Shown here piece by piece: positions 2,282 through 23,821 of a DNA stretch of 64,000 nt. The notes beneath the pieces were generated by a model that did no database searches, was not told where the DNA came from, and saw only the letters and a list, made by a program, of their open reading frames with translations. Within the stretch, counting starts at the first letter, position 1, and each line of letters starts with the position of its first letter. This DNA comes from Vicinamibacteria bacterium (lineage in GTDB: Bacteria; Acidobacteriota; Vicinamibacteria; Marinacidobacterales; Marinacidobacteraceae): positions 352,001 to 416,000 of the forward strand of contig OY821641.1 of NCBI GenBank assembly GCA_963555995.3. Reading direction: 5' to 3'. The position numbers and the translations under genes were made by a program.

Positions 2282-2385
2282 CGGCCGACTCGAACCGGCC
2301 GGACCTCTACCCGCTGCCGCCGGGCCTGTTGTCCGACGAAGAGGTGGCAGCCTTGATGGATGACGCCAAAGGAAACCGGTGAGGA

Positions 2386-2407
2386 TGTAGCTACCTGGGG
2401 CTACAAT
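2386..2407 (+). promoter_or_regulatory. TA operator overlapping a -10 box
   Basis: Inverted repeat TGTAGC-N8-GCTACA overlapping TACAAT, which ends 6 nt before ATG 2414. Confidence 0.55.
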
Positions 2408-2413
2408 CGCCGT

Positions 2414-2707
2414 ATGAAAACCGTCGGTATCCGGGTGCTCAAGAACCGGTTGAGCGAGTACGTGCGCATCGTCCAGAACGGGGAACGGGTGACCGTGACG
2501 AGCCGCGGTGCACCGGTGGTGGACCTCGTTCCGCACGCACCGGACGGGCTTGACCCCGACGACGAACTCCTGCGGCGAGCCCGTGCCGGCAAGGTACGGC
2601 TCGGCCTGCCGAACGTGAAAGCGGTGTACACGCGCCCGCCCGCAAAACGCCGGTTGCCGGATGATGTCGTCGAGGCGCTGCTTGACGAAGTACGGGGCAA
2701 CCGGTGA
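2414..2707 (+). CDS. Phd/YefM family antitoxin
   Basis: MKTVGIRVLKNRLSEYVRIVQNGERVTVTSRGAPV is a typical Phd N-terminus; overlaps the toxin start. Confidence 0.9.
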   Translation: MKTVGIRVLKNRLSEYVRIVQNGERVTVTSRGAPVVDLVPHAPDGLDPDDELLRRARAGKVRLGLPNVKAVYTRPPAKRRLPDDVVEALLDEVRGNR

Positions 2708-3135
2708 CTCTCTATGCGGAAACGAGCGCGGTCCTCGCGTGGCTCTTCGGAGAAATCCGCGGTCCGGTCGCGCTCGCCGCTCTGAGGAAGAGCGACCGTG
2801 TTTTCGCTTCCGAGCTGACGTTCATCGAAAGCCATCGCGCGATCCACGCTGCCGTCGCGACCGGGAGGCTCGGTCGCGCTCACGGAGACGAGGCCCGGGA
2901 GCAGCTCGAGTCCGAGACGGTTTCCTGGATCGTCCATGACTTCGACGCCGAGATCACTCGCCGAGCGCGACGCGGTTTTCCGCGGGAACCGTTGCGCGCC
3001 CTCGATGCGCTGCACCTGGCCACCGCCATGGAAATCCGGGCGTTTCGCCCGGAGTTGAACCTGTTGTCCTTCGACCGCCGGGTGCGGGAGAACGCCGCCG
3101 CGATGGGGTTCGAGCTGGTGCCGGACGGGATCTGA
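2704..3135 (+). CDS. VapC/PIN domain toxin
   Basis: LYAETSAVLAWL, LRALDALHLATA and SFDRR PIN motifs; GTGA overlap with the antitoxin. Confidence 0.9.
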   Translation: MTLYAETSAVLAWLFGEIRGPVALAALRKSDRVFASELTFIESHRAIHAAVATGRLGRAHGDEAREQLESETVSWIVHDFDAEITRRARRGFPREPLRALDALHLATAMEIRAFRPELNLLSFDRRVRENAAAMGFELVPDGI

Positions 3136-3218
3136 TCGACTGGACCACAGAGTTCGGCATCGCGGGCGGCCTGCCGGGACTCGTGCCGATTCCGTGTTCC
3201 AGTGCGATTTGCGTGTCC

Positions 3219-3272
3219 GGACAAGATGGTGGACACTCCACCGGACAATCTGCGGGACAATACTCAGGACAA
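3219..3272 (+). repeat. Five GGACA(A/C) boxes at exact 12-bp spacing
   Basis: Boxes start at 3219, 3231, 3243, 3255 and 3267, upstream of the Fic gene. Confidence 0.7.
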
Positions 3273-3306
3273 ACTACGGCCCAACGTTGGCCCGGAGGGC
3301 AGCGCC

Positions 3307-4521
3307 ATGACGACTTCGGGAGAGCGCGAGTACCAGAGGACCCACCCCTGGATCCGCTTCCAGCTCGACCTCCGGAAGGCCGATCCCGGACTCTGGGTCC
3401 TGCTCGGCCAGATCGTCGCCTTTGGCGAGTTCGTGTCCCGGGCGCTGCTGCCTCCGAAGGTGGCTGCGAACCTGGCGCGCCTCTACCTCGCCAAGGGCGT
3501 TCAGGCGACGGTCGCGATCGAGGGCAACACGCTCAGCGAGGAGGAGGTCCTCGCGCAGATTGATGACAGGCTCGAGCTTCCCGCTTCCAGGGAATACCTG
3601 GGCCGGGAAGTCGGGAATGTGGTGGATGCGGCCAACGACATCGTCACGCGCATCCACGGCGGGAACGCCCCGCGGCTCACCGCGGCGTTCGTGGCCGACT
3701 GCAACGGCCGCATCCTCACCGGGCTTGCCGAAGTGCTCGGGGACGAGGTGGAGCCCGGGCGCATCCGCAAGCACTCCGTCGGCGTAGGCCGCTACCGGGG
3801 GGCGCCCGCCGAGGACTGCGAGTACCTGCTGGACCAACTGGGCGAGTGGTTGGAGGCGATTCCTCAGCTCACGGTCCTCGCCACCGAATCGGACAACCGC
3901 GTCGCAACCGGGGTCCTGCGCGCCGTGCTGGCCCATCTCTACCTTGCCTGGATCCACCCTTTCGGGGATGGCAACGGGAGAACCGCCCGGCTCGTCGAGC
4001 TGTCCCTGCTGGCGCGCGTCCTGCCGTTCCCGTCGACGCAGCTTCTGAGTAACCACTACCACGACACCCGCGCTGCCTACTACCGCGAACTCGACCGCGC
4101 CGGCCAGGCGAACCAGCGGCGCGGCGATGCGATCGGCTTCCTGCGCTACGCCCTCCAGGGACTCTCCGACGGACTCCGGGAGCAGTGCCGGGAGGTGACC
4201 CGCATTCATCACCGGATCGCTTGGCGTGACTTCGTGTATCGCCGGTTCGACGAGGAAGAGACGTCCTCGGCGGTGCTTCGCCGCCGGCAGCTTCTCCTCG
4301 AGTTGCCGCCCCCCTCGACCCCGGTGTCCAGGGAGCGGATCCCGATCCACAGTCTGAAGCTCGCTCATTCCTATTCCGGCCTGAATCCCAAGACGCTGGA
4401 TCGGGATCTGAACTGGTTGATCGAGAAGGGGCTCGTGGTCCGCTCCCCGGACGGCTATGCCGCCAACCGCGGTCTCATGCAGGCGTTCGTGATGCCGGGT
4501 GCACCGGAGGGCGGTACGTAA
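3307..4521 (+). CDS. Fic family protein with C-terminal wHTH-like region
   Basis: HPFGDGNGRTAR Fic motif; TVAIEGN inhibitory-helix-like motif; KTLDRDLNWLIEKGLV HTH-like end. Confidence 0.92.
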   Translation: MTTSGEREYQRTHPWIRFQLDLRKADPGLWVLLGQIVAFGEFVSRALLPPKVAANLARLYLAKGVQATVAIEGNTLSEEEVLAQIDDRLELPASREYLGREVGNVVDAANDIVTRIHGGNAPRLTAAFVADCNGRILTGLAEVLGDEVEPGRIRKHSVGVGRYRGAPAEDCEYLLDQLGEWLEAIPQLTVLATESDNRVATGVLRAVLAHLYLAWIHPFGDGNGRTARLVELSLLARVLPFPSTQLLSNHYHDTRAAYYRELDRAGQANQRRGDAIGFLRYALQGLSDGLREQCREVTRIHHRIAWRDFVYRRFDEEETSSAVLRRRQLLLELPPPSTPVSRERIPIHSLKLAHSYSGLNPKTLDRDLNWLIEKGLVVRSPDGYAANRGLMQAFVMPGAPEGGT

Positions 4522-4587
4522 CCGGCATTCCCCGGGACCTTCTTCCACCAGCCCGCTACCGGACCAGGAACGCCCCGCGCTCTCACA

Positions 4588-4786
4588 GGTTCCGCCGCCG
4601 CCGTATCTCGTCCTGACCAGGACCTCCGCAGGTAGGACGACAGCACCGGATCAACCAGCGTCCAGCGCCCGTCGTCGTTCCGGTCCAACATATGTTGGAA
4701 CAAGGATCATTGGTCCAACAGATATGGAAGCCACGTCTTCCTCGGGGCGGTGCGCCCGGGGCACGGGGGCGCCATGCCTGCCGGTT
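4588..4786 (-). pseudogene. Internally deleted copy of the ATPase locus at 15922-17064 (3' end joined to the promoter region)
   Basis: 4588-4684 resembles 15898-15988 ([19 protein letters not shown]); 4684-4786 resembles about 17079-17181. Confidence 0.8.
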
Positions 4787-4935: not shown

Positions 4936-6567
4936 ATGTCACCCGCACGACCGAAGAAGGCGAAGCGCGCGGCCAGGACTGCCGGCGGGAGCGCCACCAC
5001 CGGCTACGAGGCCGAACTCTGGGCGATGGCCGACGCGCTGCGCGGCAGCATGGACGCGGCCGAATACAAGCACGTCGTCCTCGGGCTCATCTTCCTGAAG
5101 TACATCTCGGACGCCTTCGAGGAGACGTACGCCCGCCTGGAGGCCGAGAGGGACGAGGGCGCGGACCCGGAAGACCCGGACGAGTACCGCGCTGACAACG
5201 TCTTCTGGGTGCCCCCGGAGGCCCGCTGGAACCGCCTCCAGGCGCAGGCGAAGCAGGCCACGGTCGGCCGGCTCGTGGACGACGCGATGGCGGGTATCGA
5301 GCGCGACAACCCGGCCCTCAGGGAGGTGCTGCCCAAGGAGTACGCGCGCCCGGCGCTCGACAAGCAGCGGCTCGGCCAGCTCATGGATCTGGTCAGCAAC
5401 ATCCGGGTCGGAGACAGGGAAGCCCGCTCCCGGGATGTCCTCGGCCGGGTGTACGAGTACTTCCTCTCCGAGTTCGCGAACGCCGAGGGCAAGAAGGGCG
5501 GCGAGTTCTACACGCCGCGCTGCGTCGTCCGGCTGCTCGTCGAGATGATCGAGCCGTACCAGGGCCGGGTGTACGACCCGTGCTGCGGCTCCTCCGGGAT
5601 GTTCGTCCAGTCCGTCGAGTTCATCGAGGCGCACGCGAGCGGCAACGGGAACGCCCGGACCACGCCCTCGGGGGCCAAGGCGGACATCTCGATCTACGGT
5701 CAGGAGTCCAACTACACGACCTGGCGGCTCGCCCGGATGAACCTGGCCATCCGCGGCATTGGTGGCCAGATCGCCCAGGGCGACACCTTCCACAACGACC
5801 GGCATCCCGACCTGCGAGCCGACTTCATCCTGGCGAACCCGCCGTTCAACGTGTCCGACTGGGGAGGCGACCGCCTCACCGAGGACCCGCGGTGGGAATA
5901 CGGCGTGCCGCCGAAGGGCAACGCGAACTTCGCGTGGGTGCAGCACATCGTCCACCACCTGGCGCCGACAGGTGTCGCCGGGTTCGTCCTCGCCAACGGG
6001 TCCATGTCCTCGCAGCAGTCCGGGGAAGGGGAGATCCGCAAGAACCTGATCGAAGCGGGTCTCGTGGACTGCATGGTCGCCCTGCCGGGGCAGCTCTTCT
6101 ACTCGACCCAGATCCCGGCGTGCCTCTGGTTCCTGTCCCGGCGGCGGTTCGGCGGCGGCCTGCGCGACCGGCGCGGCGAGGTGTTGTTCGTGGACGCCCG
6201 GCGGCTCGGCCGCATGGTGACCCGCCGCCACCGCGAACTGACGGACGCGGAGATCACCCGGATCGCGGACACCTACCACGCCTGGCGCGGCGAGGAAGGA
6301 ACGGGCGACTACGAGGACGTCCCGGGCTTCTGCCGGAGCGCCCCGCTCGACGAGGTGCGGAAGCACGGGTACGTGCTGACGCCTGGACGGTACGTGGGCG
6401 CGGAGCCGGAAGAGGACGACGGGGAACCGTTCGAGGCGAAGATGAAGCGGCTCGCCGCGGAGTGGCGGGAACAGCAGGCCGAGGCGGCGCGGCTCGACGC
6501 GGAGATCGCGGCCAATCTCGCAGCGCTGGGTTTCGGGGACGGTGGTGGCGGCAATTCAGCGACTTGA
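4936..6567 (+). CDS. hsdM: Type I R-M methyltransferase subunit
   Basis: [27 protein letters not shown] (motif I) and ANPPFN (motif IV, m6A). Confidence 0.97.
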
Positions 6568-6828
6568 GATCACAATCCGTGATGTCAAGTCGGGACGGGC
6601 GCCCGTCTCTCCCGCTCCCATTGCTGAACCGGGTGTCTTGATGTTCTCCGGAGTGCTGCGCAGTCCGCGCGCTGTTACGGTTCAGAAGATGCGGAAGGCG
6701 ACCCGATTCCACCTCGACAGCTCTGCGGGATTCGGGGAGCTGGTTTCGGGAACGGTCGTCCAGTGTGGGGCTGGTGGTGGCCGCCCCGGCATACAGACGC
6801 GCCCGATCCCACCGGGGAGTCGCCCGCG

Positions 6829-8127
6829 ATGACGTTCGACGCGGCAGACGTTCGGGAACGAATCCGCCTCGGCGAGGACGCGCGCTGGGAGCTCAAGGAG
6901 GTGGTGTTTCGAGGGAACCGCCTCGTCGGTCCCCGGCCTGACGCGCTTGCGGATGAGTTGGCCGCCTTCGCCAACGGTCGTGGCGGCATTTTGCTCCTCG
7001 GCGTGACCGAGGGTGGCGAGGTCCAGGGAGTCACCCGTACCCAACTCGATGAGCTTGACCGTAACGTCGTGGACCTCTGCCACAACCGGATCACGCCCCC
7101 TATCGAGGTCGATATCCGCCGTTTCCTCATCGAACCCGGGAAACCGGTCCTCTCCGTCGAGGTCGAACCGGGCTACGCCCAGCACGACAGCCCCGGCGGC
7201 GCGTACCAGCGCTTCGGCGGCAGCAAACGGCGGATGTCGCCGGATGAACGGCGTCGGCTCGCCGAGATCCGAAATCAGGCCCCCTTTCGGTGGTTCGACA
7301 AGCAACCGGTGCCAGGCACCGGACTCGGCAGTCTCGACGACGCGCTTTGGGAACCGATGCTGGACGCTCAGGGACGGCTCGATCCCAGAAGAGGCCTTGC
7401 GAGACTGGCTCTCCTGGCGTCCGAAGCCGAGGCGGCGGCTGAAGCGACCGTCGCCGGCGTTTTGCTGTGCAGCCGCGCGCCGGAGCGATGGCTGCCAAAC
7501 GCCTGCATCACGGCGACTCACTATCGGGGCAAGGACCGCAGTTCCCCGCAGTTGGACGCGCGGGTCATCACGGGGCCGCTCCACCGGCAGGTCGCCGACG
7601 CCATGACCTTCGTCGAGCGGAACATGCAGGTCGATGCCCACAAGACGTCAGCCCGGATGGATCAGCCCGAATACAGCCTCGAAGCGGTGTTCGAGGCGCT
7701 GGTGAACGCCGTGGCGCACCGCGACTACACGATCCGGGAAAGCCCAATCCGGCTTTCGATGTTCTCGGATCGGTTGGAGATTGCTACTCCGGGTCGGCTG
7801 CCGGGCAGTCTGACCGCCGATACGATGGGCAGCCGTCAGGCAACACGGAATGAAGCCATCGTTTCCATATTGACCGACATCGCGCTGGATGGAGTTTCCC
7901 GCTCGGGCAGCCCAGGTTTCTTGATGACGCGGCGCGGCGTCGGTATTGCCACTATCGCCCATAGAACCCGACGGCTCACGGGCCGGTCGCCCGTATATGA
8001 CGTGTCGGACGATGCCGTTACCCTCACGATTCCGGCGTCTCACCGCACAATGCCGAAGCTCTTCGCGAGAGCTTCCCGGCAAGGACGGGCCGCCGGCGGA
8101 ACCGCCGATGCGAGGTTGGCAGGATGA
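6829..8127 (+). CDS. AlbA_2 (Schlafen-like) domain plus HATPase_c_4 (RecG C-terminal-like) protein
   Basis: WELKE..DELAAFANGRGGILLLGV (AlbA_2); EALVNAVAHRDY..FSDRLEIATPG (HATPase_c_4). Confidence 0.85.
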   Translation: MTFDAADVRERIRLGEDARWELKEVVFRGNRLVGPRPDALADELAAFANGRGGILLLGVTEGGEVQGVTRTQLDELDRNVVDLCHNRITPPIEVDIRRFLIEPGKPVLSVEVEPGYAQHDSPGGAYQRFGGSKRRMSPDERRRLAEIRNQAPFRWFDKQPVPGTGLGSLDDALWEPMLDAQGRLDPRRGLARLALLASEAEAAAEATVAGVLLCSRAPERWLPNACITATHYRGKDRSSPQLDARVITGPLHRQVADAMTFVERNMQVDAHKTSARMDQPEYSLEAVFEALVNAVAHRDYTIRESPIRLSMFSDRLEIATPGRLPGSLTADTMGSRQATRNEAIVSILTDIALDGVSRSGSPGFLMTRRGVGIATIAHRTRRLTGRSPVYDVSDDAVTLTIPASHRTMPKLFARASRQGRAAGGTADARLAG

Positions 8128-8609
8128 TCGCCGAAAAGGAACCGAGAATTGACTACTCCAGGTTCCAACTCTCCCTCAGACGGCTGGTGGAACAACATGA
8201 CAACCTCTTGGCCGCCGACGATGCGCTTTCGCGGCTGGACCGCGAGGCGCGTACCGAATCGGTGATTCGGCGTTTCAAGATGTGCTACGACTGCCTGTGG
8301 AAGGTCTTGAAGCGCTACCTCATCCAGAATCTCGGACTGGCTGATCCGCCAAATAGTCCTGTCCCGCTCTTCCGTCTGGCCGCGGAGAACGGTGTGTTCG
8401 ATTCACCCGTTGAGCAGTGGATGCGGTACGTGGCCGCGCGAGTTGACACTGCCCACCACCACGACGGGGAGAAGGCGAAGCGCTGCCTCGATACCGTGCC
8501 CGAGTTTCTGGACGACGCCATCCATCTCTATGGGACGATAACGGGTGAACCATGGGGCAGCAATCCTGCCGCGCCGTTTGCCGCCGGTAGTGCACCATGC
8601 TGGACCTGA
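8124..8609 (+). CDS. HEPN / nucleotidyltransferase substrate-binding protein (HI0074-like), copy 1
   Basis: ESVIRRFKMCYDCLWKVLKRYL..SPVPLFR..RVDTAH (Rx4H). Confidence 0.8.
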   Translation: MIAEKEPRIDYSRFQLSLRRLVEQHDNLLAADDALSRLDREARTESVIRRFKMCYDCLWKVLKRYLIQNLGLADPPNSPVPLFRLAAENGVFDSPVEQWMRYVAARVDTAHHHDGEKAKRCLDTVPEFLDDAIHLYGTITGEPWGSNPAAPFAAGSAPCWT

Positions 8610-9019
8610 CTCCGCTCGACAACGCCATAGCCCAACTCGAAGAGGCGCTCGATTTCCACGGGTCTGACCTTGCTGCCGAGCAGCCGCGACTCCGGCTCCA
8701 GTTGCGCGCGGCCGCGATTCAGGCGTTCGAATTCACGTACGAGCTCTCCTTCAAGATGCTTGGCCGGTATCTGGAGCAAGTTATGCCGAATCCAGCGGCA
8801 GTGGACAAGATGCCGTTCAAGGACCTGATCCGGGAAGCGCTGGGTCGCGGGCTGCTCGCCGCGGACGTAGATGCGTGGGAGCGGTTCCGGAAGTTTCGGG
8901 GAACGACCAGCCACACCTACGACGCCGGAAAGGCACAGGCCATCTTCGAAGGCATTCCGGAGTTTCTGGACGAAGTCCGGTATCTCCGGAAGCGGCTCCG
9001 CACCAACGTGGAAGGGTGA
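8597..9019 (+). CDS. HEPN / nucleotidyltransferase substrate-binding protein (HI0074-like), copy 2
   Basis: AAAIQAFEFTYELSFKML..FKDLIREA..RGTTSHTY (Rx4HxY). Confidence 0.9.
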   Translation: MLDLTPLDNAIAQLEEALDFHGSDLAAEQPRLRLQLRAAAIQAFEFTYELSFKMLGRYLEQVMPNPAAVDKMPFKDLIREALGRGLLAADVDAWERFRKFRGTTSHTYDAGKAQAIFEGIPEFLDEVRYLRKRLRTNVEG

Positions 9020-10653
9020 TGGCGCCCGCGATTGATCTTCGTCCGGATCACCGGAAGATCGTCGAGGACATCCTGCGCGACCACCTCCCGGATGGCGCCA
9101 AGGTCTGGGTCTTCGGAAGTCGCGCCGAGTGGACCACCAAGGATTCTTCCGACCTGGACCTCGCGCTCGAAGGTGACGGGCCGCTCGATCGCCGGATCGT
9201 GATGGCGCTCGAACTGGCTTTCGAGGAGTCGTTCCTCCCGTTCCGGGTGGACGTGGTGGATCTGGAGCGGGTGCAGGAGCGGTTTAGAGAGATCGTGCTC
9301 CGAAGCCGCGTTGGCCTGTCTTTGCCGAGGGATGGTGAGGCAACGTATACGAATCGAGGCGAGATGGGGTTCTCAGATGCCTTCCTAGTGAATCCAAGAG
9401 TCAAGCTGGAACGAGATGTGGAGTATCCGTTCGTCGAAATGAGTGATCTGATGCCGGGTCTGCGTGCGGCTGTGTCAACGCGGCGTCGTCGGTTTCGCGG
9501 TGGCGGTTCTCGCTTCAGAGCCGGTGACACTTTGATGGCGCGAATAACGCCATGTCTCGAAAACGGCAAGATTGCCCGTTACGTGGCAACACGGAAAGAC
9601 GACGTAGGACATGGTTCGACCGAATTCATTGTCATTCGAGGCCGCCCCGATGTAACGGATACCGAGTTTGCCTTCTATGTGACGCGTTCAGATTCAGTCC
9701 GGGAATACGCGATCTCTCAGATGAGTGGCACATCGGGCCGGCAGCGCGTCCCAGTGGACGCGTTGAACACTCTGATGGTTTCTGTACCAAGCCTTCCTGA
9801 GCAGCGCGCAATCGCGAGCGTTCTCGGGACGCTCGATGACCGCATCGAGCTGAACCGGCGGATGAACGAGATATTGGACGCGATGGCGCGGGCGCTCTTC
9901 AAGTCCTGGTTCGTGGACTTCGATCCTGTACGGTCAAAAATGGAAGGCCGCGACGCGGGTCTGCCGTCCGAGATCGCCGACTTGTTCCCGGACCGGCTGG
10001 TGGAGTCGGAGTTGGGCGAGATTCCCGAGGGATGGGCCGTCATGCCGCTTGCAGAGGTCATGGAAATCAACCCCGTCCGCACACTCAGTAGGGGTCACAT
10101 CGCGCCCTACCTCGATATGGCAAACATGCCGAGAACGGGTCATGTTCCTCTCAGTATCCGAATGCGGAACTTCGGCTCGGGGACCCGATTTGTGAACGGC
10201 GACACGCTCATGGCGCGGATTACGCCATGCCTTGAGCATGGGAAGACAGCCTATGTGGATTTCCTCCAACACGGTGAAGTCGGATGGGGTTCGACTGAGT
10301 TCATTGTGCTGCGACCGAGGCTGCCAATCCCCGGCGAATATGCCTACTGTCTTGCGAGAAGTTCTCGTCTTCGCGAACACGCGATCGCGAGCATGACGGG
10401 GAGCAGTGGGCGACAGCGAGTTCCGCCGGCCGCGCTTTCCCAGTTCCTGGTGTGTGTGGCAACTCCGGGGATCTATCGCGCGTTTGGCGATTCGGTGAGC
10501 GCGTTGTTCGCCCGTGTGCGAGAAGGGCAGCGTCGTTCGCGTGCCGCGACTTCCCTCCGCGACATGCTCCTGCCCAAGCTCGTGTCCGGCGAAGTCCGCG
10601 TGCCCTCTACTCTGGTCGGGCGCTACAACGACCCCGCAGCGCCTGCGACCTGA
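9019..10653 (+). CDS. hsdS: Fusion of a minimal nucleotidyltransferase (MNT) and the type I R-M specificity subunit
   Basis: N-terminal VWVFGSRAEWTTKDSSDLD (GSx10DxD) and LPFRVDVVD; then two TRDs with the conserved helix PSLPEQRAIASVLGTLDDRIELNRRMNE and LRDMLLPKLVSGE; TGATG coupling to HEPN copy 2. Confidence 0.92.
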   Translation: MAPAIDLRPDHRKIVEDILRDHLPDGAKVWVFGSRAEWTTKDSSDLDLALEGDGPLDRRIVMALELAFEESFLPFRVDVVDLERVQERFREIVLRSRVGLSLPRDGEATYTNRGEMGFSDAFLVNPRVKLERDVEYPFVEMSDLMPGLRAAVSTRRRRFRGGGSRFRAGDTLMARITPCLENGKIARYVATRKDDVGHGSTEFIVIRGRPDVTDTEFAFYVTRSDSVREYAISQMSGTSGRQRVPVDALNTLMVSVPSLPEQRAIASVLGTLDDRIELNRRMNEILDAMARALFKSWFVDFDPVRSKMEGRDAGLPSEIADLFPDRLVESELGEIPEGWAVMPLAEVMEINPVRTLSRGHIAPYLDMANMPRTGHVPLSIRMRNFGSGTRFVNGDTLMARITPCLEHGKTAYVDFLQHGEVGWGSTEFIVLRPRLPIPGEYAYCLARSSRLREHAIASMTGSSGRQRVPPAALSQFLVCVATPGIYRAFGDSVSALFARVREGQRRSRAATSLRDMLLPKLVSGEVRVPSTLVGRYNDPAAPAT

Positions 10654-10857
10654 TGTTCGTCGGGCGTGATCCAGGGCGGGAAGCAACACGTGCAGAATTT
10701 GCACAAGTTCGATTTCGGCACGGGAGGCCCGGATCTCTCCGGGTGCATCCTGGGGGCTGGTTGTCCGACGGGACCTCCGAAGACGGATTGAGACATCTGT
10801 GCGGCTTGTCCCAGAGCACGGCCCAAAAGGTGGGGGCAACTAGTAAGGATTCCTTAA

Positions 10858-12372
10858 CAGCCTGTGGTGAAACTCCGCTGGGCGGGATTGAGTGCGCTGG
10901 CGGGGCTTCGTAGAATTTTCGCATGGCTATGGGACGTCGCGGGACGCGGCGGCAAGGGTTGTGGATTGCGACCGGGGCGCTGCCTCGGAGCAAGGGGGAT
11001 CCGTTTTACGAGCGTCTGAATAAGGTTCTCGGGGGGGATCGCTTTGACGAGTATGTGGAGGAGCGGTGTGAGCGTCACTACGCGCCGGACGGTCGTCCTG
11101 GGCTTGCGCCTGGGCGGTATTTCCGCTGCCTTCTGATCGGGTATTTCGAGGGTCTGGACTCGGAGCGATTGATCGCGTGGCGGGTGAACGACTCCCGCAG
11201 CCTGTTGCGGTTCCTGGGTTACGGGCCGGCGGACAGCGGGCCGGATCATTCGACGATTTCGCGGACGCGCCGTCGGGTGAGTGAGGAGACGCACGCGGAG
11301 GTGTTCGGCTGGGTTGTGGAGCGGGTGAAGCGAGCGGGGCTTCTGCGGGGGGATGCGCTGGGGGTGGATACGACGACGCTGATGGCGAACGCCTCGATGC
11401 GGAAGATCGTGCGACGGGACAGCGGGGAGGGCTACCGGGAGTATGTGAGGAGGTTGATGGAGGAGTCGGGGATCGAGGCTCCGACGTTGGAGGAGTTGGC
11501 GCGCTACGACCGGACGCGGAAGAAGCGGTTGTCGAACGGCGACTGGGCGCATCCGGTGGACCCCGAGGCCCGCATCAGTCGGCTGAAGGATGGCCGGACG
11601 CGGATGGGGTACAAGGCGGAGCACGCCGTGGACCTGGCGAGTGGCGCGATCGCGGCGGTGACGGTCCAACCCGGGGACCGCGGGGACACCAAGACCCTGC
11701 CGCAGACCCTGGACGAAGCGGAGAAGCATGTGGGGGCCGGGGCGGCGGAGGCTGAAACGCCGGGGAAGCCAACGGCTTGCCGGAAGGAGGGGAAGCCCCG
11801 GTCCTTGGTGTGTGACAAGGGGTATCACAGCGATGCGGTGATCGAGCAGACGCGGGAGCGTGGTTACCGTTCGTACATCGCGGAGCCGAAGCGCGGGCGT
11901 CGTCGCTGGCGGGGTCGAGAGTCCCTGCGTCGCGCGACATACGGCAACCGTCGGCGGGTTCGTGGAAATCGCGGCACCCGGCTGCGAAGACGGCGCCACG
12001 AACTGACGGAGCGTTCCTTCGCGCACTGCTACGAGACCGGCGGGATGCGCCGGGTGTGGTTGCGGGGCAGTGGGAACATTCGAAAACGTCTGCTGATCCA
12101 CACCGCTGGCTTCAATCTGTCGCTGCTCATGCGGCGCCTGACCGGGATCGGGAAACCAAAGGGCCTCCAGAACCGGAACATGGAGGCCATGCAGCGCCAC
12201 TTGTCGCCCGGACGGGCCTCCCTGTGGCGCATCGTGCACCTCTGGCGCCGTTGTCCGACCGCGATCCTCGTTCTCTTGACCGAACCCCCGTCCTGGCCGT
12301 GTCTCCACGAGCAGAAGCTCGACGCTCATTCCCGACGGAATCCGCCGTGAACGCCACTTTCACCACAGGCTG
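10858..12372 (+). mobile_element. IS1182-family insertion sequence
   Basis: Terminal inverted repeats CAGCCTGTGGTGAAA / TTTCACCACAGGCTG; TTAA duplicated at 10854-10857 and 12373-12376. Confidence 0.9.
10923..12350 (+). CDS. DDE transposase (IS1182/IS5-like, DUF772-type N-terminus)
   Basis: LLIGYFEGLDSER..PDHSTISRTR, VDTT, CDKGY and ERSFAH motifs. Confidence 0.92.
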   Translation: MAMGRRGTRRQGLWIATGALPRSKGDPFYERLNKVLGGDRFDEYVEERCERHYAPDGRPGLAPGRYFRCLLIGYFEGLDSERLIAWRVNDSRSLLRFLGYGPADSGPDHSTISRTRRRVSEETHAEVFGWVVERVKRAGLLRGDALGVDTTTLMANASMRKIVRRDSGEGYREYVRRLMEESGIEAPTLEELARYDRTRKKRLSNGDWAHPVDPEARISRLKDGRTRMGYKAEHAVDLASGAIAAVTVQPGDRGDTKTLPQTLDEAEKHVGAGAAEAETPGKPTACRKEGKPRSLVCDKGYHSDAVIEQTRERGYRSYIAEPKRGRRRWRGRESLRRATYGNRRRVRGNRGTRLRRRRHELTERSFAHCYETGGMRRVWLRGSGNIRKRLLIHTAGFNLSLLMRRLTGIGKPKGLQNRNMEAMQRHLSPGRASLWRIVHLWRRCPTAILVLLTEPPSWPCLHEQKLDAHSRRNPP

Positions 12373-12416
12373 TTAATGGTTCGATCCGAAGGGCGCCGGA
12401 CGGTTCGCCCTTGACG

Positions 12417-15539
<3,123 letters not shown>

Positions 15540-15592: not shown

Positions 15593-15925
15593 ATGACTCA
15601 TAAACCCGATGCCCTTGAACGAGATTTCGACGCCGCGATGATGCAGATCTACTACCGTGCGAAGGACGAGGTGGGATACAACGCGAACCGGTTTCTGCAA
15701 ATGCTGCACGACTACGGCGGCGTTGAAACCGCCAGGCGCCTGCTACCGGCCATGTCCGACGGATTCACTGCACTCTACGAACACTGTCGTCTCGACCTGA
15801 CCGTCGAGTACCTCGTGCTGCAACCCCGATGGCATCAACTCTTCACGGATGAAGAGCGAGACACGGCGCGTCGCCGTCTCAAGTGCTGCGGGATGGAGGT
15901 TCCGGCCGTATCTCGTTCGGACTAA
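15593..15925 (+). CDS. Small hypothetical protein
   Basis: AGGAGG RBS; globular-looking FDAAMMQIYYRAK..GYNANRFLQML..GGVETARRLL..RLDLTVE sequence. Confidence 0.7.
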   Translation: MTHKPDALERDFDAAMMQIYYRAKDEVGYNANRFLQMLHDYGGVETARRLLPAMSDGFTALYEHCRLDLTVEYLVLQPRWHQLFTDEERDTARRRLKCCGMEVPAVSRSD

Positions 15926-17064
15926 GACCTCCGGAGGTAGGACGCCATCACCGGATCAACCAGCGTCCAGCGGCCGTCGTCATTCCGGTGGATCAGGTCG
16001 TCCTGTTCGAGTACCGCACGGGCGTGATTCCCGGTGGATGCGGGCAGCCTGAGAGTGGACAGGAACCGGTGGGAGCCCGGGTGTTCCACTCCGTCCTCGG
16101 ACTGGGCGATGGCCTTGAGCATGGCGCGTTGGCTGGCCGGACGACGGAGCAGGCGGCCGGCGGCGACGCGTCCATCTTCGTCCACGATTCGGGACCAATG
16201 CGCTTCCACGGATTCGATGCCGGGCGAGCGCTGACCGCCCCAGAGCCGGGCGCAGAGCGCATTCACATAGTAGGGATGCCGTGCCGTGAGCCTGAGGACT
16301 CGAGCGATCACGTCGTCGGCCACCGGCTGGCCCCAGCGTGTCCGGCTCGCTTCCTGGATGAAGGCCCGGTAGTCAGCCTCCCCGATGCGGTCGAGGGTGA
16401 TCTTGCGGCACAGGCGGTACAACGGCCGCTCCTCATCCTCGAACATCCCGGCCAGCAGGCGCCGCTGGCTCCCGGAGAAGAGATAGGTGACATTCCCTGA
16501 CCGTTCGACCGCGTGCCGGATGGCGCCTTCGAGGCTGCGCTGCGCGGTCTTGGGGGAAAGCTGCGACAACTGCTGAAACTCGTCGAGCACCAGGACCACC
16601 CGGCGCCCGACCATCCCGGCGGCCCGGTCGAGGCCGAGCAGCATTTCGGTGATTCCCCGTGTCGGAGGACCCGGCGGCGTGAGGCGGATCTTCAGACCCA
16701 TCGCACCGACGGAGAATTCCGGAGAGAGCGCGCGGAACGCGTCGGTGAGCGTTTGACTCGCTTTTCTGCCCTTTGGTGCGATCCGGGCGCTCACGCCTTC
16801 AACTGCCGTTCGCAACCGTCCTTCGAGGTCTTGGCCGTCGTGGGCGACCAGCAGGTCAACGGCGGTGGCGGCGATCTCCGTTCCAGCGAGGTCCTGCAGC
16901 ACCTGTTCGATGAGGCTGGTCTTGCCCGTCCGGCGGTGGCCCCAGAGCCAGGTGTGCGTCCCGGAAGCGATGTTGTGGCTGAGTTCGGCGCGCTCCTCCG
17001 TGCGGTTGCAGTGGGCGGCTCCCGTCGCGATTCCGAGCGGGAAGAGGTCCGTTCCGGCTGCCAT
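15922..17064 (-). CDS. AAA/archaeal-type ATPase with C-terminal wHTH
   Basis: CNRTEE, GHRRTGKTSL (Walker A), LVLDEFQ (Walker B), GSQRRLL and HPYYVN. Confidence 0.88.
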   Translation of the reverse strand: MAAGTDLFPLGIATGAAHCNRTEERAELSHNIASGTHTWLWGHRRTGKTSLIEQVLQDLAGTEIAATAVDLLVAHDGQDLEGRLRTAVEGVSARIAPKGRKASQTLTDAFRALSPEFSVGAMGLKIRLTPPGPPTRGITEMLLGLDRAAGMVGRRVVLVLDEFQQLSQLSPKTAQRSLEGAIRHAVERSGNVTYLFSGSQRRLLAGMFEDEERPLYRLCRKITLDRIGEADYRAFIQEASRTRWGQPVADDVIARVLRLTARHPYYVNALCARLWGGQRSPGIESVEAHWSRIVDEDGRVAAGRLLRRPASQRAMLKAIAQSEDGVEHPGSHRFLSTLRLPASTGNHARAVLEQDDLIHRNDDGRWTLVDPVMASYLRRS

Positions 17065-17077
17065 GTGAGGGATTTTA

Positions 17078-17095
17078 TTCCAATACATATTGGAA
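17078..17095. promoter_or_regulatory. Palindromic operator upstream of the ATPase
   Basis: TTCCAATA-CA-TATTGGAA; the paralogous site 4684-4699 is the perfect palindrome TCCAACATATGTTGGA. Confidence 0.6.
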
Positions 17096-17206
17096 CAAGG
17101 ATCATTGGTTCAACGGATATGGAAGCCGTCCTTCTCGCGACGGTGCGTTGCAGGGCACGGGTTCGCCATCCGTGCCGGTTTGGTGGGGCGCCTCGCGCCT
17201 TCGGCG

Positions 17207-21171: not shown

Positions 21172-21192
21172 TCCTCTGAGGAGAGCGCTTCG

Positions 21193-21237
21193 CGGCCCTG
21201 CGGGCCGCGTGCCGGTCTGAAGACCGGCGCTCCCAGC
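21193..21237. repeat. REP-like palindrome
   Basis: GCGTGCCGGTC-TGAA-GACCGGCGCTCCC. Confidence 0.85.
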
Positions 21238-21371
21238 CTACGTGCTACCGGTCGGGGCCGGCGTCCCTTCGGCCTTCACGAATCTCCCGAGCCCGGCAGC
21301 ACCCCGCGGTGGAAGTCCTGGCACTCCCAGACCGCTACGACGGTCGCTCCAACTCGCGAACGCGCGCCGCC

Positions 21372-22148
21372 TTAGGTGGTCACGCCGTCCAGATCCACGA
21401 TGACGGGTGCGGCTTCGGTTCGGTGGTCTGTGTCCACCCACGCGTCGCGCAAGCAGTCCGCCAGAATCTGGCTGCCGAGAACCAGGTGAAGCCTCGAAGT
21501 GCCTTCCTCGGAGAACTGGAACCCGAAGTTGAAGCCGGCTTTGCCGTCGGGATGGGCTTGGCGGTAGAGGTCCACGAATCCGAGTTCGCAGAGCCGGGCC
21601 AATTCCTGCTGTTCCCGTTGGCTGTACGCGCTTCCCGGCTTGGGACGACGACCGTCCGGCAACACGTTGAAATCTCCACACAACAGGCTCGGCCGCTGGG
21701 CGTAGCCTTCCTTGCGAACGTGGGTCCGCAGGCACTCCAGCCAAGCCACCCGGGTGTTGATGGCCTTCTCGTTGGCGTCCTTGCGGGGGTTTCCGTACTT
21801 GGCCGGGTTTCCGTACGGGGCGTAGATGGACGAGAACCGTATCTGCCCGATGTCCACCGTGAGCAAGCGGGCCCCGTTTGCTTCCGGACAGGGCAGGCCG
21901 CGGAAGCGGACCACGGGCTTGGGTAACTCCCGCCGGCTTAGCACGGCAACGCCGTAGTCCGTCGGACAGGTCCGACCGAATGCAGCGCTGTGGTAGCCGG
22001 CTTCCTCCAGTGCCTTGGTCGGGAACGCGGTTTCGGGCACGGAGATCTTCTGGAGGGCCACGATGTCGGGCTTCCTGGCCGCGAGCCAGTCCAGGATCCT
22101 GGGAAGGCGCTTTCGGATGCTTCGGACGGATGACGTTGCGATTCGCAT
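21372..22148 (-). CDS. Exodeoxyribonuclease III / EEP family protein, divergent and possibly inactive
   Basis: MRIATSSVRSIRKRL, PDIVALQK, YGVAVLSR, SIYAPYG and LCGDFNV; canonical N/E/D/H positions are substituted (LQK for LQE, RLHL for RIDH, TEAAPV for SDHAPV). Confidence 0.8.
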   Translation of the reverse strand: MRIATSSVRSIRKRLPRILDWLAARKPDIVALQKISVPETAFPTKALEEAGYHSAAFGRTCPTDYGVAVLSRRELPKPVVRFRGLPCPEANGARLLTVDIGQIRFSSIYAPYGNPAKYGNPRKDANEKAINTRVAWLECLRTHVRKEGYAQRPSLLCGDFNVLPDGRRPKPGSAYSQREQQELARLCELGFVDLYRQAHPDGKAGFNFGFQFSEEGTSRLHLVLGSQILADCLRDAWVDTDHRTEAAPVIVDLDGVTT

Positions 22149-22220
22149 GGTTTCTTTTCGTCGGGACGCGAACCGTACTTGTGCAGGACGCCAAATGCTG
22201 TCAGGGTTTCAGCCGGACCC

Positions 22221-22692
22221 TGTCGGAGGTTGGCGTTCCAAGCCGTACCTCCCACCTGCGCTCTTGAACTCCACGTTGAGGTGGGAGCCGCCTTGTTCTG
22301 GTGGAGTTGCGACGTGCGCGGCGCGGAGCGCCGCGCGTGCCGGTCTGGAGACCGGCGTTCCAAGCCGTATGTGTCACCTGCGCTCTTGAGCTCCACGTTG
22401 AGGTAGGAGCTGGCTTGTTCGGGTGGGGTTGTGACGTGCGCGGTGCGGAGCGCCGCGCGTGCCGGTCTGGAGACCGGCGTTCCAAGCCGTACGGGCCACC
22501 GGCGCTCTTGGGTTCCGCGTCGGGGTGGGAGCTGGCTTGTTCGGGTGGGGTTGTGCCGTGCGCGGCGCGGAGCGCCGCGCGTGCCGGTCGGAGACCGGCG
22601 GTCCAAGCCGTTTCCGTGGTCTGGCTGGGTGGAGCGGGCGTCGCTGCGGGCCTGCGGCCCGCGTGCCGGTCTGAAGACCGGCGCTCCCGGCC
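22221..22692. repeat. Tandem array of about 122-bp REP-containing units (BIME-like)
   Basis: CCAAGCCGT anchors at 22238, 22360, 22482 and 22603; each unit ends in the GCCGGTC..GACCGGC palindrome. Confidence 0.9.
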
Positions 22693-22693
22693 C

Positions 22694-23821
22694 TTAGGCG
22701 GCGACGGCGGTTTCGGTGTGGATGGTGGCGAGCAGGTCGCTGATGATGGTGAGGCTTTCGGTGACGACGGCGGGTTCGGCGCCGAAGCCGATGCGGAGGA
22801 AGCCGTCGAGCTCGAAGTGCTGGGCGGGGACCACCAGGAGGCTGCGCTCGATGCGGAGGCGTTCGATGAGGTCCTCGGAGCGGATGGGGTGGTGGTAGCG
22901 GACGGCGGCGATGGCGCCCGCGACCGGTGGGGTCCAGCTCAGGCGGACGGGGTGGTTCTCATGGGAGGCCACCCAGTCGGTCACCATCGGGAGCTGGCGG
23001 CGGATGATGCTGCGGGTGCGCTCCAGGATCTGCGGACGCTTGTCGAGGGCGATCTGGGCGAGGCGGTCGGACATCGCGCTGAGCGCGAGGCTGCTGTAGT
23101 CGCGGTGGCCCCAGAGTTCGGTGGCCTTCTCCTCGGTGGTCACCGTCCAGCCGACCCGGAGGCCGGGGAGGCCGAACGCCTTGGAGAGGCCGGCGTTCAG
23201 GAGGATGCGGTCCGTGCGGCCCCAGAAGGTCGGGCACTCCTCGCCGCTGAGTTCCGCGCCGCGATAGACCTCGTCGGCGAGGAGCCAGGCCCCCGACCGC
23301 TCGGCGGCGGCCACGATCCGGTCCATCTCGGGCTCGGTCAGCACGGCGCCGCTCGGGTTGTTGGGATTGCAGACGAGGATCATCTTGGTCCGGTCGCTGA
23401 CCGCGGCGTCGAGCGCGTCCAGATCGGGCCGCCAGCCGTTCTCCTCGACCAGGTGGAACGGGATGACCCGGGCGCCGAGCGAGCGGCAGGCCCCGATGAT
23501 CTGCATGTAGTTCGGGATCATCGCCACCACCTCGTCGCCGGGCGACAGGGTGGTCAGGGCGGAGAGGAAGTTGGCTTCGGCGGTGCCGGTGGTCACGAGG
23601 ATCTGGTCCACGTTCGATCCGGGGTAGAGCGCCGCGATCCGCTCGCGGAGCGGGATCGTGCCGTTGCTCTGGGTGTAGCCGAGCAGGGTGTCCCCGAGGT
23701 CGGCGCCGTCCGTCAGCTCGGCGAACGTCAGCGGGTGGACCCCGCTCTCCGAGATGTTCAGCCGGACGGTGTTCTCCCACCGGCAGAGGCATCGTTCCAT
23801 CACGAACGGTTCGAACTTCAT
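22694..23821 (-). CDS. Aminotransferase class I/II (PLP-dependent)
   Basis: CNPNNPSG, LADEVYRG and GLSKAFGLPGLRVGW. Confidence 0.93.
   Translation of the reverse strand: MKFEPFVMERCLCRWENTVRLNISESGVHPLTFAELTDGADLGDTLLGYTQSNGTIPLRERIAALYPGSNVDQILVTTGTAEANFLSALTTLSPGDEVVAMIPNYMQIIGACRSLGARVIPFHLVEENGWRPDLDALDAAVSDRTKMILVCNPNNPSGAVLTEPEMDRIVAAAERSGAWLLADEVYRGAELSGEECPTFWGRTDRILLNAGLSKAFGLPGLRVGWTVTTEEKATELWGHRDYSSLALSAMSDRLAQIALDKRPQILERTRSIIRRQLPMVTDWVASHENHPVRLSWTPPVAGAIAAVRYHHPIRSEDLIERLRIERSLLVVPAQHFELDGFLRIGFGAEPAVVTESLTIISDLLATIHTETAVAA

Follow-up and report, generated by a model that had tools for sequence, protein, structure and literature searches.

The DNA analysed here, called the window, is a 64,000-nucleotide stretch from a Vicinamibacteria bacterium (contig OY821641.1, positions 352,001 to 416,000), and it carries a type I restriction-modification (R-M) operon. 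In this operon a minimal nucleotidyltransferase (MNT) antitoxin domain is fused to the specificity subunit HsdS, and the fusion gene follows two HEPN genes, HEPN1 and HEPN2, the second of which encodes an intact toxin candidate. The analysis indicated that this architecture is real, widespread and apparently undescribed, and that it is assembled from two known kinds of system. Our preferred reading, to which we give a probability of roughly 0.55, is a type VII toxin-antitoxin (TA) safeguard of the R-M operon that is released on loss of antitoxin supply or of ATP.

The MNT-HsdS fusion and the HEPN proteins

The fusion gene (9019-10653) encodes a protein of 544 aa, P0001, with GSRAEWTTKDSSDLD at residues 33-47, which fits the GSx10DxD motif. 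The motif residues are G33-S34 and D45-x-D47, and D78 and D81 are invariant (47 relatives). An HMM search, a check proposed in the earlier note, matched Pfam Polbeta (PF18765), NTP_transf_2 (PF01909, above cut-off) and Methylase_S (PF01420), and PADLOC Specificity_I models covered two stretches of the protein; the NCBIfam MntA equivalog scored the whole fusion below cut-off, at 38 of 60 bits. In the AlphaFold2 model (mean pLDDT 89), the HsdS part resembled the solved subunits 7VS4 (7VS4_C) and 1YF2 (1YF2_A), and the MNT part, taken separately, resembled HI0073 (1NO5). The fusion is thus modelled as two independent folds, an HI0073-like MNT and a normal HsdS with two target recognition domains (TRDs). 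Between them, pLDDT fell below 50 at residues 99-111, and conservation across 107 aligned fusions dropped from 0.63-0.82 to 0.29.

We then examined whether the fusion could be an artefact. Three samples from a single study (X1-X3), among which the source sample may be, yielded single contigs that span 7702-9921, 7702-10830 and 7702-9914 with 0, 0 and 2 substitutions and no gaps. Because they cross the junction gap-free, MNT and TRD1 are not separated by a stop or frameshift, which the earlier note had named as a ground for refutation, and its claim of one frame from MNT through both TRDs holds. The sample contigs and the fused homologues together rule out an assembly artefact. The TGATG coupling that had been described is also present, as the HEPN2 stop codon (TGA, 9017-9019) overlaps the ATG of the fusion. 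The PADLOC HsdS model PDLC03138 itself covers the MNT residues, so proteins of this kind have gone unnoticed in R-M collections. TRD1 and TRD2 (9361-10460) are clear paralogues that share DTLMARITPCLE, GSTEFIV and GxSGRQRVP, which suggests similar half-sites. The TRDs differ between relatives, and the MNT and the spacer stay conserved.

HEPN2 carries RGTTSHTY at residues 101-108 (R101-x4-H106-x-Y108), confirming the Rx4HxY motif reported for it. It matched HI0074 (1JOG) at E 7e-22 and showed 1 deviation across 41 conserved columns, and Y108 was invariant in 47 fused-pair HEPNs. Its predicted metal site, Q42/E45, aligns with the catalytic Q44/E47 of a solved PF08780 homologue. In that homologue, Q44 and E47 are described as Mg ligands on which RNase activity depends, and R98A and H103A had little effect in the assays (PMC11586414). 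Against four close relatives, dN/dS was 0.21-0.28 for HEPN2, 0.13-0.24 for MNT and 0.10-0.15 for hsdM, showing purifying selection. Class I HepT/MntA systems are described as a PF01934 or PF08780 toxin with RX4HXY beside a PF01909 MNT with GSX10DXD (Yao et al. 2020, PMC7641770). HEPN2 and the neighbouring MNT show every one of these sequence hallmarks, and the decay asymmetry reported below fits a TA pair, in agreement with the HepT/MntA likeness drawn in the earlier note.

HEPN1 differs in several respects. It passed the PF08780 cut-off and carries RVDTAHHH at residues 106-113, that is, Rx4H with H in place of Y, as had been noted. The QxxE site is lost, with RRFK at residues 49-52; the changes are Q49R, E52K (K also occurs in 8 homologues), D112H and Y113H. 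Among 66 columns conserved at 90% or more in 119 homologues, HEPN1 was off consensus at 8 and the homologues at 0-6, and its reading frame runs about 21 codons beyond the usual family stop. Relatives of HEPN1 (53-59% identical) go with an MNT type of their own, in many cases as an HsdS fusion. Without the Tyr of RX4HXY, the metal site and a cognate MNT, HEPN1 falls outside Class I. Because the Q/E metal ligands that the solved homologue needs for RNase activity are lost, HEPN1 is likely dead, a relic.

The DNA around HEPN1 points to its origin. Identity to four close relatives (L023-L026) ends at 6531-6549 and restarts at 8595, and, among the loci seen, only the window placed two full-length HEPNs ahead of a single MNT. 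Genes like the Schlafen/AlbA gene upstream of HEPN1 fill the same slot between hsdM and HEPN in two other loci (L050, L077), and orphan copies of the HEPN1 type elsewhere show similar decay (L306, L309, L312). We considered HEPN1 as the earlier resident toxin of the operon and rejected this, since the closest relatives lack it; arrival together with the Schlafen/AlbA gene is therefore more likely. Judged from these alignments, HEPN1 appears to have entered on a 2-kb insertion, its own antitoxin being absent, and the DNA alignments across the junction did not fix the crossover point. The earlier note had offered two roles for HEPN1, a relic or an unmodifiable partner. The lost QxxE and Tyr, the read-through tail, the private insertion and the decaying orphans support the relic well; all of these except the decaying orphans make an active unmodifiable partner unlikely, and we rejected it. 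The Schlafen/AlbA_2-HATPase_c_4 protein has about 432 aa, compared with about 580 codons for the L050 and L077 open reading frames (ORFs), and it may lack the C-terminal winged helix-turn-helix of the kind described in PMC12839542.

Spread, exchange and decay of the pair

To place the fusion in its family, we searched residues 1-130 of P0001 against proteins of 299-952 aa and obtained 480 matches from 826 candidates. Both PF18765 and PF01420 were present in 118 of the 120 homologues listed, and GSx10DxD was kept in 121/121. A context sample was formed from the best 80 of 156 genome matches, picked by MNT similarity. In this sample 76 of 83 MNT ORFs were fused to HsdS. A HEPN gene adjoined the MNT in 72 of the 75 cases with upstream room and was full-length with Rx4HxY in 65/75; hsdM lay upstream in 72/73 and hsdR downstream in 57/67. 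Loci with both the fusion and HEPN numbered 70, three of them archaeal, and covered 8 phyla by record title, Nitrososphaerota included. Metagenome loci (n = 49) gave 13 fused ORFs, with HEPN adjacent in 12/12 with room, and none of their 29 complete unfused MNTs lay near hsdM. The cultured Zymomonas mobilis ATCC 10988 carries the full operon with the fusion on plasmid pZMOB01 (ZMOB_RS09235, RS09975, RS10260, RS09100), and Acetobacter plasmids have an identical gene order but a separate MNT. Among viral contigs, 12 pattern matches were found and none was confirmed. Five of the MNT-HsdS proteins (P0012, P0124, P0125, P0127, P0227) hold a PF04480 or PF01541 nuclease-like insert in the HsdS part.

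A survey of MNT-HsdS fusions beside HEPN genes had been suggested, and we carried it out with two controls. The first was selected on hsdS through the spacer only; among 301 genomes from the window's own class and 400 Gammaproteobacteria it gave 61 and 47 places, respectively. From these, 9 places with short upstream DNA were dropped, 2 duplicate rows were merged, and the fused set includes the window and the centre genome. HEPN lay upstream of 32/34 fused hsdS genes, as against 3/65 unfused ones. One of these three HEPNs is accompanied by a separate MNT; the other two lack any MNT and are truncated or degenerate. Within this hsdS family the fusion was absent from 32/59 places in the window's class and from 33/40 in the other class. 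The second control was selected on HEPN through TIGR01987 and covered the best 110 of 140 Gammaproteobacteria places and 28/28 Dehalococcoidia places. The 114 Gammaproteobacteria rows comprised about 97 plain pairs lacking a called R-M gene in the neighbourhood, 6 fused to HsdS and 2 unfused in the slot, and 10 of the 28 Dehalococcoidia places were HsdS-fused. These results indicate that most HI0074-family pairs are ordinary TA pairs and that, between hsdM and hsdS, an unfused pair is a rare exception.

Next, we compared the histories of the pair and of its host operon. HsdM C-terminal halves 78-80% identical to that of the window were paired with HEPNs only 28-65% identical to HEPN2. Mapped on a 189-pair tree, the fused state required 21 changes, 13 of them forced by starred branches; the two rows scored as embedded but unfused (L104, L110) are contig-end truncations. 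Monophyly of the fused pairs was rejected by the approximately unbiased (AU) test (p 0.0003 for HEPN, 0.015 for MNT; HEPN-selected rows with 30 random unfused rows). Cassette exchange on a scaffold already fused may explain this no less than new fusion events.

Tandem MNT-MNT proteins, collected by a long-protein search (biased to tandems) and the residue 1-130 search, gave further evidence. Among 100 such proteins, 84 of them with HsdS, the outer motif was intact in 100/100 and the inner one broken in 28/100; after clustering, the inner MNT was broken in 18/47 clusters and the outer in none. The adjacent HEPN type fitted the outer MNT in 9/9 tandem loci with DNA, 8 of them distinct (58-87% vs 31-42%). 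This pattern reads as MNT catalysis being kept for the neighbouring HEPN. Locus L260 (2426-5265) represents a stacked intermediate with the order hsdM-HEPN-MNT-HEPN-MNT-hsdS, its last two parts fused. Loss of the toxin with the antitoxin kept was common (L030, L039, L040, L080, L099, L330, L337, L374), and this asymmetry of decay fits HEPN toxicity. On these comparisons the pair is an exchangeable cassette, in which new pairs enter N-terminally and old MNTs and orphan HEPNs decay.

Operon layout and neighbouring features

Table 1. Features of the R-M operon of the window, in order along the + strand.
Feature	Position	Strand	Evidence or remark
hsdM, type I methyltransferase	4936..6567	+	PF02384 355 bits, PF12161; start codon inferred, ORF opens 4750
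Block of about 2 kb (Schlafen/AlbA gene and HEPN1)	6550..8594	+	missing in closest relatives
Schlafen/AlbA_2 and HATPase_c_4 (RecG-C-like) gene	6829..8127	+	PF04326, PF13749; start inferred
HEPN1, orphaned, likely inactive HI0074-family toxin relic	8124..8609	+	PF08780 60 bits
HEPN2, intact HI0074-family toxin candidate	8597..9019	+	PF08780 102 bits; TIGR01987 76.6 bits, above cut-off
MNT antitoxin domain of the fusion	9019..9315	+	PF18765, PF01909; HI0073 1NO5 E 4e-14
Variable MNT-TRD1 linker, about residues 99-115	9316..9360	+	conservation drop, low pLDDT
HsdS part: TRD1, conserved spacer, TRD2, C-terminal helix	9361..10653	+	PADLOC Specificity_I up to 366 bits
Insertion sequence (IS) element between hsdS and hsdR	10858..12372	+	IS1182/IS5-like transposase 10923-12350
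hsdR, type I restriction subunit, HindI-like family	12411..15539	+	TIGR00348 570 bits, PF11867

The type I R-M set of the window is complete, with hsdM, a two-TRD hsdS and hsdR all present with intact motifs (Table 1). The hsdM motifs are DPCCGSSG and NPPF, and hsdR contains PD...ELK, Walker A and DEAH. An IS separates hsdS from hsdR. It has three copies in the genome that are at least 99.8% alike and TTAA at either end. Its insertion is recent, and the X1-X3 sample contigs also hold an IS-free joint; alleles with and without the IS may coexist. Promoter and terminator scans of the window gave no signal above chance level, and a sigma-70-like site at 10888-10916, within the IS, was at chance level.

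Several other features lie around the operon. Diverged direct repeats flank the R-M region, with 4587-4786 matching 15897-15989 (86%) and 17079-17180 (82%); the left copy resembles the ends of an ATPase locus (15922-17088) with an internal deletion. Just upstream of hsdM, at 2360-4521, are a Phd/YefM-PIN type II TA pair and a Fic protein (PADLOC SoFic, 147 bits). A family of short repeats (50-260 bp) occurs at 1511-2292 and 21191-22694 in both orientations, and a tandem unit of about 122 bp lies within it at 22232-22611. The source genome has at least 3 more type I R-M loci, at about 1.14-1.15, 3.30 and 3.57-3.58 Mb, their hsdM and hsdR being only distantly related (25-34% identity), and tblastn detected no second MNT or HEPN copy elsewhere in it.

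Possible roles and relation to known systems

In the safeguard that we favour, the fused MNT would use ATP to AMPylate Tyr108 of HEPN2, by analogy with HepT/MntA homologues (PMC7641770, PMC11586414), and HEPN2 would be a Mg-dependent RNase built on Gln42/Glu45. The genomes suggest that the MNT works without HsdM and without the TRDs; the toxin would therefore be released by falling antitoxin supply or ATP, not by sensing of DNA mimics. Plausible triggers are loss or silencing of the 5' half of the operon and, possibly, host shut-off by phage. With fusion, a single start codon would serve antitoxin and HsdS, and the small MNT would probably gain stability; a fused MNT has been described as more stable than a split one (PMC13000451). 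The arrangement probably makes the R-M operon hard to lose, and the pair may also serve as a suicide back-up against phage.

Several points weigh against this safeguard. Toxicity, AMPylation and benefit to the host are predicted from homologues, and the related genomes counted here, most of them metagenome-assembled, are non-independent. The dN/dS of HEPN2 is slightly above the 0.02-0.20 seen in pairs among the relatives. Nine of the 114 Gammaproteobacteria HEPN rows had no MNT call, some of them with intact motifs, so the statement that an intact HEPN always comes with an MNT is valid only within the examined R-M slot. Some loci have lost hsdS or hsdM yet have the pair, so that the pair, taken as an addiction module, gives the operon only loose protection. 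The excess of fused over unfused pairs in the slot, about 34:2 in the hsdS-selected and 16:2 in the HEPN-selected control, is left unexplained by a safeguard alone.

That excess favours an arrangement like PrrC or Ronin, in which HsdS would act as a conditional stability or localisation tag and the MNT would be active only in M2S or R2M2S. An HsdS that lacks its HsdM partner is unstable. By binding or breaking up the complex, anti-restriction proteins would then leave new HEPN unAMPylated and cause abortive infection. Many unrelated HEPN-MNT lineages are fused, PrrC (PMC3710099) and Ronin (10.1101/2023.04.06.535777) offer precedents, and MNT also joins subunits of other defence complexes, as seen from locus L123 (7552-11201), where the MNT of a second HEPN-MNT pair of the operon is in frame with HsdR, and from the 'Cmr1-MntA' chain of PDB 9Z7Q/9Z7V/9Z7X. 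Against such wiring, the linker is variable and predicted to be disordered, with no conserved interface, unfused forms persist on Acetobacter plasmids, and the spread of fusion can also be explained by cassette swaps on an already fused scaffold. Inhibitor binding would leave already modified toxin silent, because neutralisation is covalent in the homologues.

A survey of integrity at 73 scorable genome loci bears on the same question. All of hsdM, HEPN and the MNT-hsdS fusion were intact in 52. In 5/73, HEPN and the fusion were intact and hsdM was broken or missing. The toxin was kept and hsdS scored as broken in 3/73, one of which (L064) is probably a pattern miss, leaving 2-3 loci with intact HEPN and truncated hsdS. 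Both groups may stem from a different HsdM acting in trans, from silencing or from errors of assembly. Free pairs with an intact toxin made up 2/73, and the toxin was broken or missing in 11/73. The earlier note had proposed that toxin neutralisation could require the R-M complex to be intact; this is so far unsupported, given the variable low-confidence linker, the unfused Acetobacter pair, the five loci with broken or missing hsdM and the 2-3 with truncated hsdS. The same counter-cases leave sensing of Ocr/ArdA unsupported so far, and we regard such sensing by the fusion as doubtful. The further suggestion in the earlier note, addiction to hsdS itself, is weak, as L013 has lost hsdS and keeps HEPN and a free MNT. 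An hsdSp deletion in Z. mobilis ZM4 (PMC8432527) was considered as an addiction test and set aside: the pZM32 operon has no annotated HEPN or MNT and is a different system. Overall, the conditional arrangement is unlikely, though it comes next after the safeguard. It is a tentative idea, held at the same low level, that an enzymatic antitoxin wired via HsdS, occasionally HsdR and maybe also Cmr1, defines a class in which anti-restriction attack or loss of HsdM frees the RNase. That TA specificities swap at the N-terminus of HsdS in such a class, much as the TRDs behind it do, is similarly speculative.

It is less probable still that the pair is a selfish hitch-hiker, which exploits a mobile R-M recombination hot spot without gain to the host, the fusion merely sparing hsdS translation. 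Most HI0074-family pairs stand alone (the roughly 97 plain Gammaproteobacteria rows), the slot admits other guests such as the Schlafen/AlbA gene, the toxin is frequently lost, and the hsdS family is often free of the fusion in both classes. Set against this are the 52 loci intact throughout, dN/dS close to that of hsdM, and the fact that stacked or unfused insertion is viable (L260, Acetobacter) and fusion nevertheless prevails. A last explanation appears very improbable: the MNT would have been recruited as a modifier of the R-M complex, of DNA or of some other protein, HEPN would bind its substrate, and HEPN1 would be a second, catalytically dead subunit. PDB titles do describe HI0073/HI0074 as a two-protein nucleotidyltransferase, and several MNT-hsdS genes without an intact HEPN retain the motif. 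Yet an inner MNT whose cognate HEPN has been displaced tends to decay, though still on HsdS, the acceptor Tyr and the QxxE/KxxE site are retained in 95/104 fused-pair HEPNs, and HEPN1 sits on a private insertion in a layout seen in the window only.

The arrangement matters beyond this genome. The role and trigger of the very common HEPN-MNT pairs are left open in the relevant discussions of PMC7641770 and PMC11586414. Here, within the class of the window, 27/59 places of a single hsdS family have the pair built into type I R-M, annotated only as 'subunit S'. The cultured Z. mobilis strain with pZMOB01 allows a direct test of whether a type VII TA pair safeguards or backs up restriction. A strain stripped of such an hsdS gene for better transformation would be expected to die if it kept the HEPN gene.

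A full-text literature search, covering the running text of mostly open papers, found no description of an MNT-HsdS fusion. The main text of Payne et al. 2024 (10.1101/2024.01.29.577857) contains no MNT, nucleotidyltransferase or hsdS, and its embedded-gene tables could list the layout. Anantharaman et al. 2013 (PMC3710099) describe HEPN fused to nucleases and helicases, with HsdS absent from the text; Figure 5 or the additional file could list the layout. PADLOC models gave no match for HEPN1 or HEPN2.

Among known systems, the pair resembles the PF08780 branch of HepT/MntA, represented by HI0074/HI0073 (1JOG, 1NO5) and by the Legionella pneumophila pair in the account of Jin et al. 2024 (PMC11586414; 8XDJ, 8XEH). 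The shared features are a toxin with Rx4HxY and a QxFE metal site, adjacent and coupled genes, and a short MNT with GSx10DxD that lacks a long C-terminal helix. Unlike in HepT/MntA, the antitoxin of the window is fused to HsdS, the pair is embedded in a type I R-M operon and the toxin gene comes first. An MntA-like domain on a defence-complex subunit also occurs in Cmr1-MntA (residues 351-425 of 438, E 5e-4), for which a literature search found no paper; that chain belongs to CRISPR type III and has a C-terminal fusion, and the likeness is drawn from the PDB name and this match.

PrrC of EcoprrI, an anticodon nuclease in a type IC R-M system, is likewise a HEPN RNase encoded within an hsd operon. 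PrrC is an ABC-ATPase-HEPN protein held by the Hsd complex, whereas the HEPNs of the window are single-domain proteins of 140-161 aa, and the stand-alone HEPN of 140 aa has a dedicated enzymatic antitoxin. As in PrrC and Ronin, the toxin gene is linked to hsdM and hsdS. Ronin (HsdMS and RonA), as presented in the preprint of Silas et al. (10.1101/2023.04.06.535777), uses HsdMS to restrain a toxin that ArdA and Ocr release; it has no hsdR and a membrane toxin of 61 aa, in contrast to the operons described here, in which hsdR is usual (57/67). More generally, the operon resembles the cases discussed by Payne et al. and Anantharaman et al., in which guest genes, often HEPN RNases, occupy hsd slots and are proposed to provide back-up defence.

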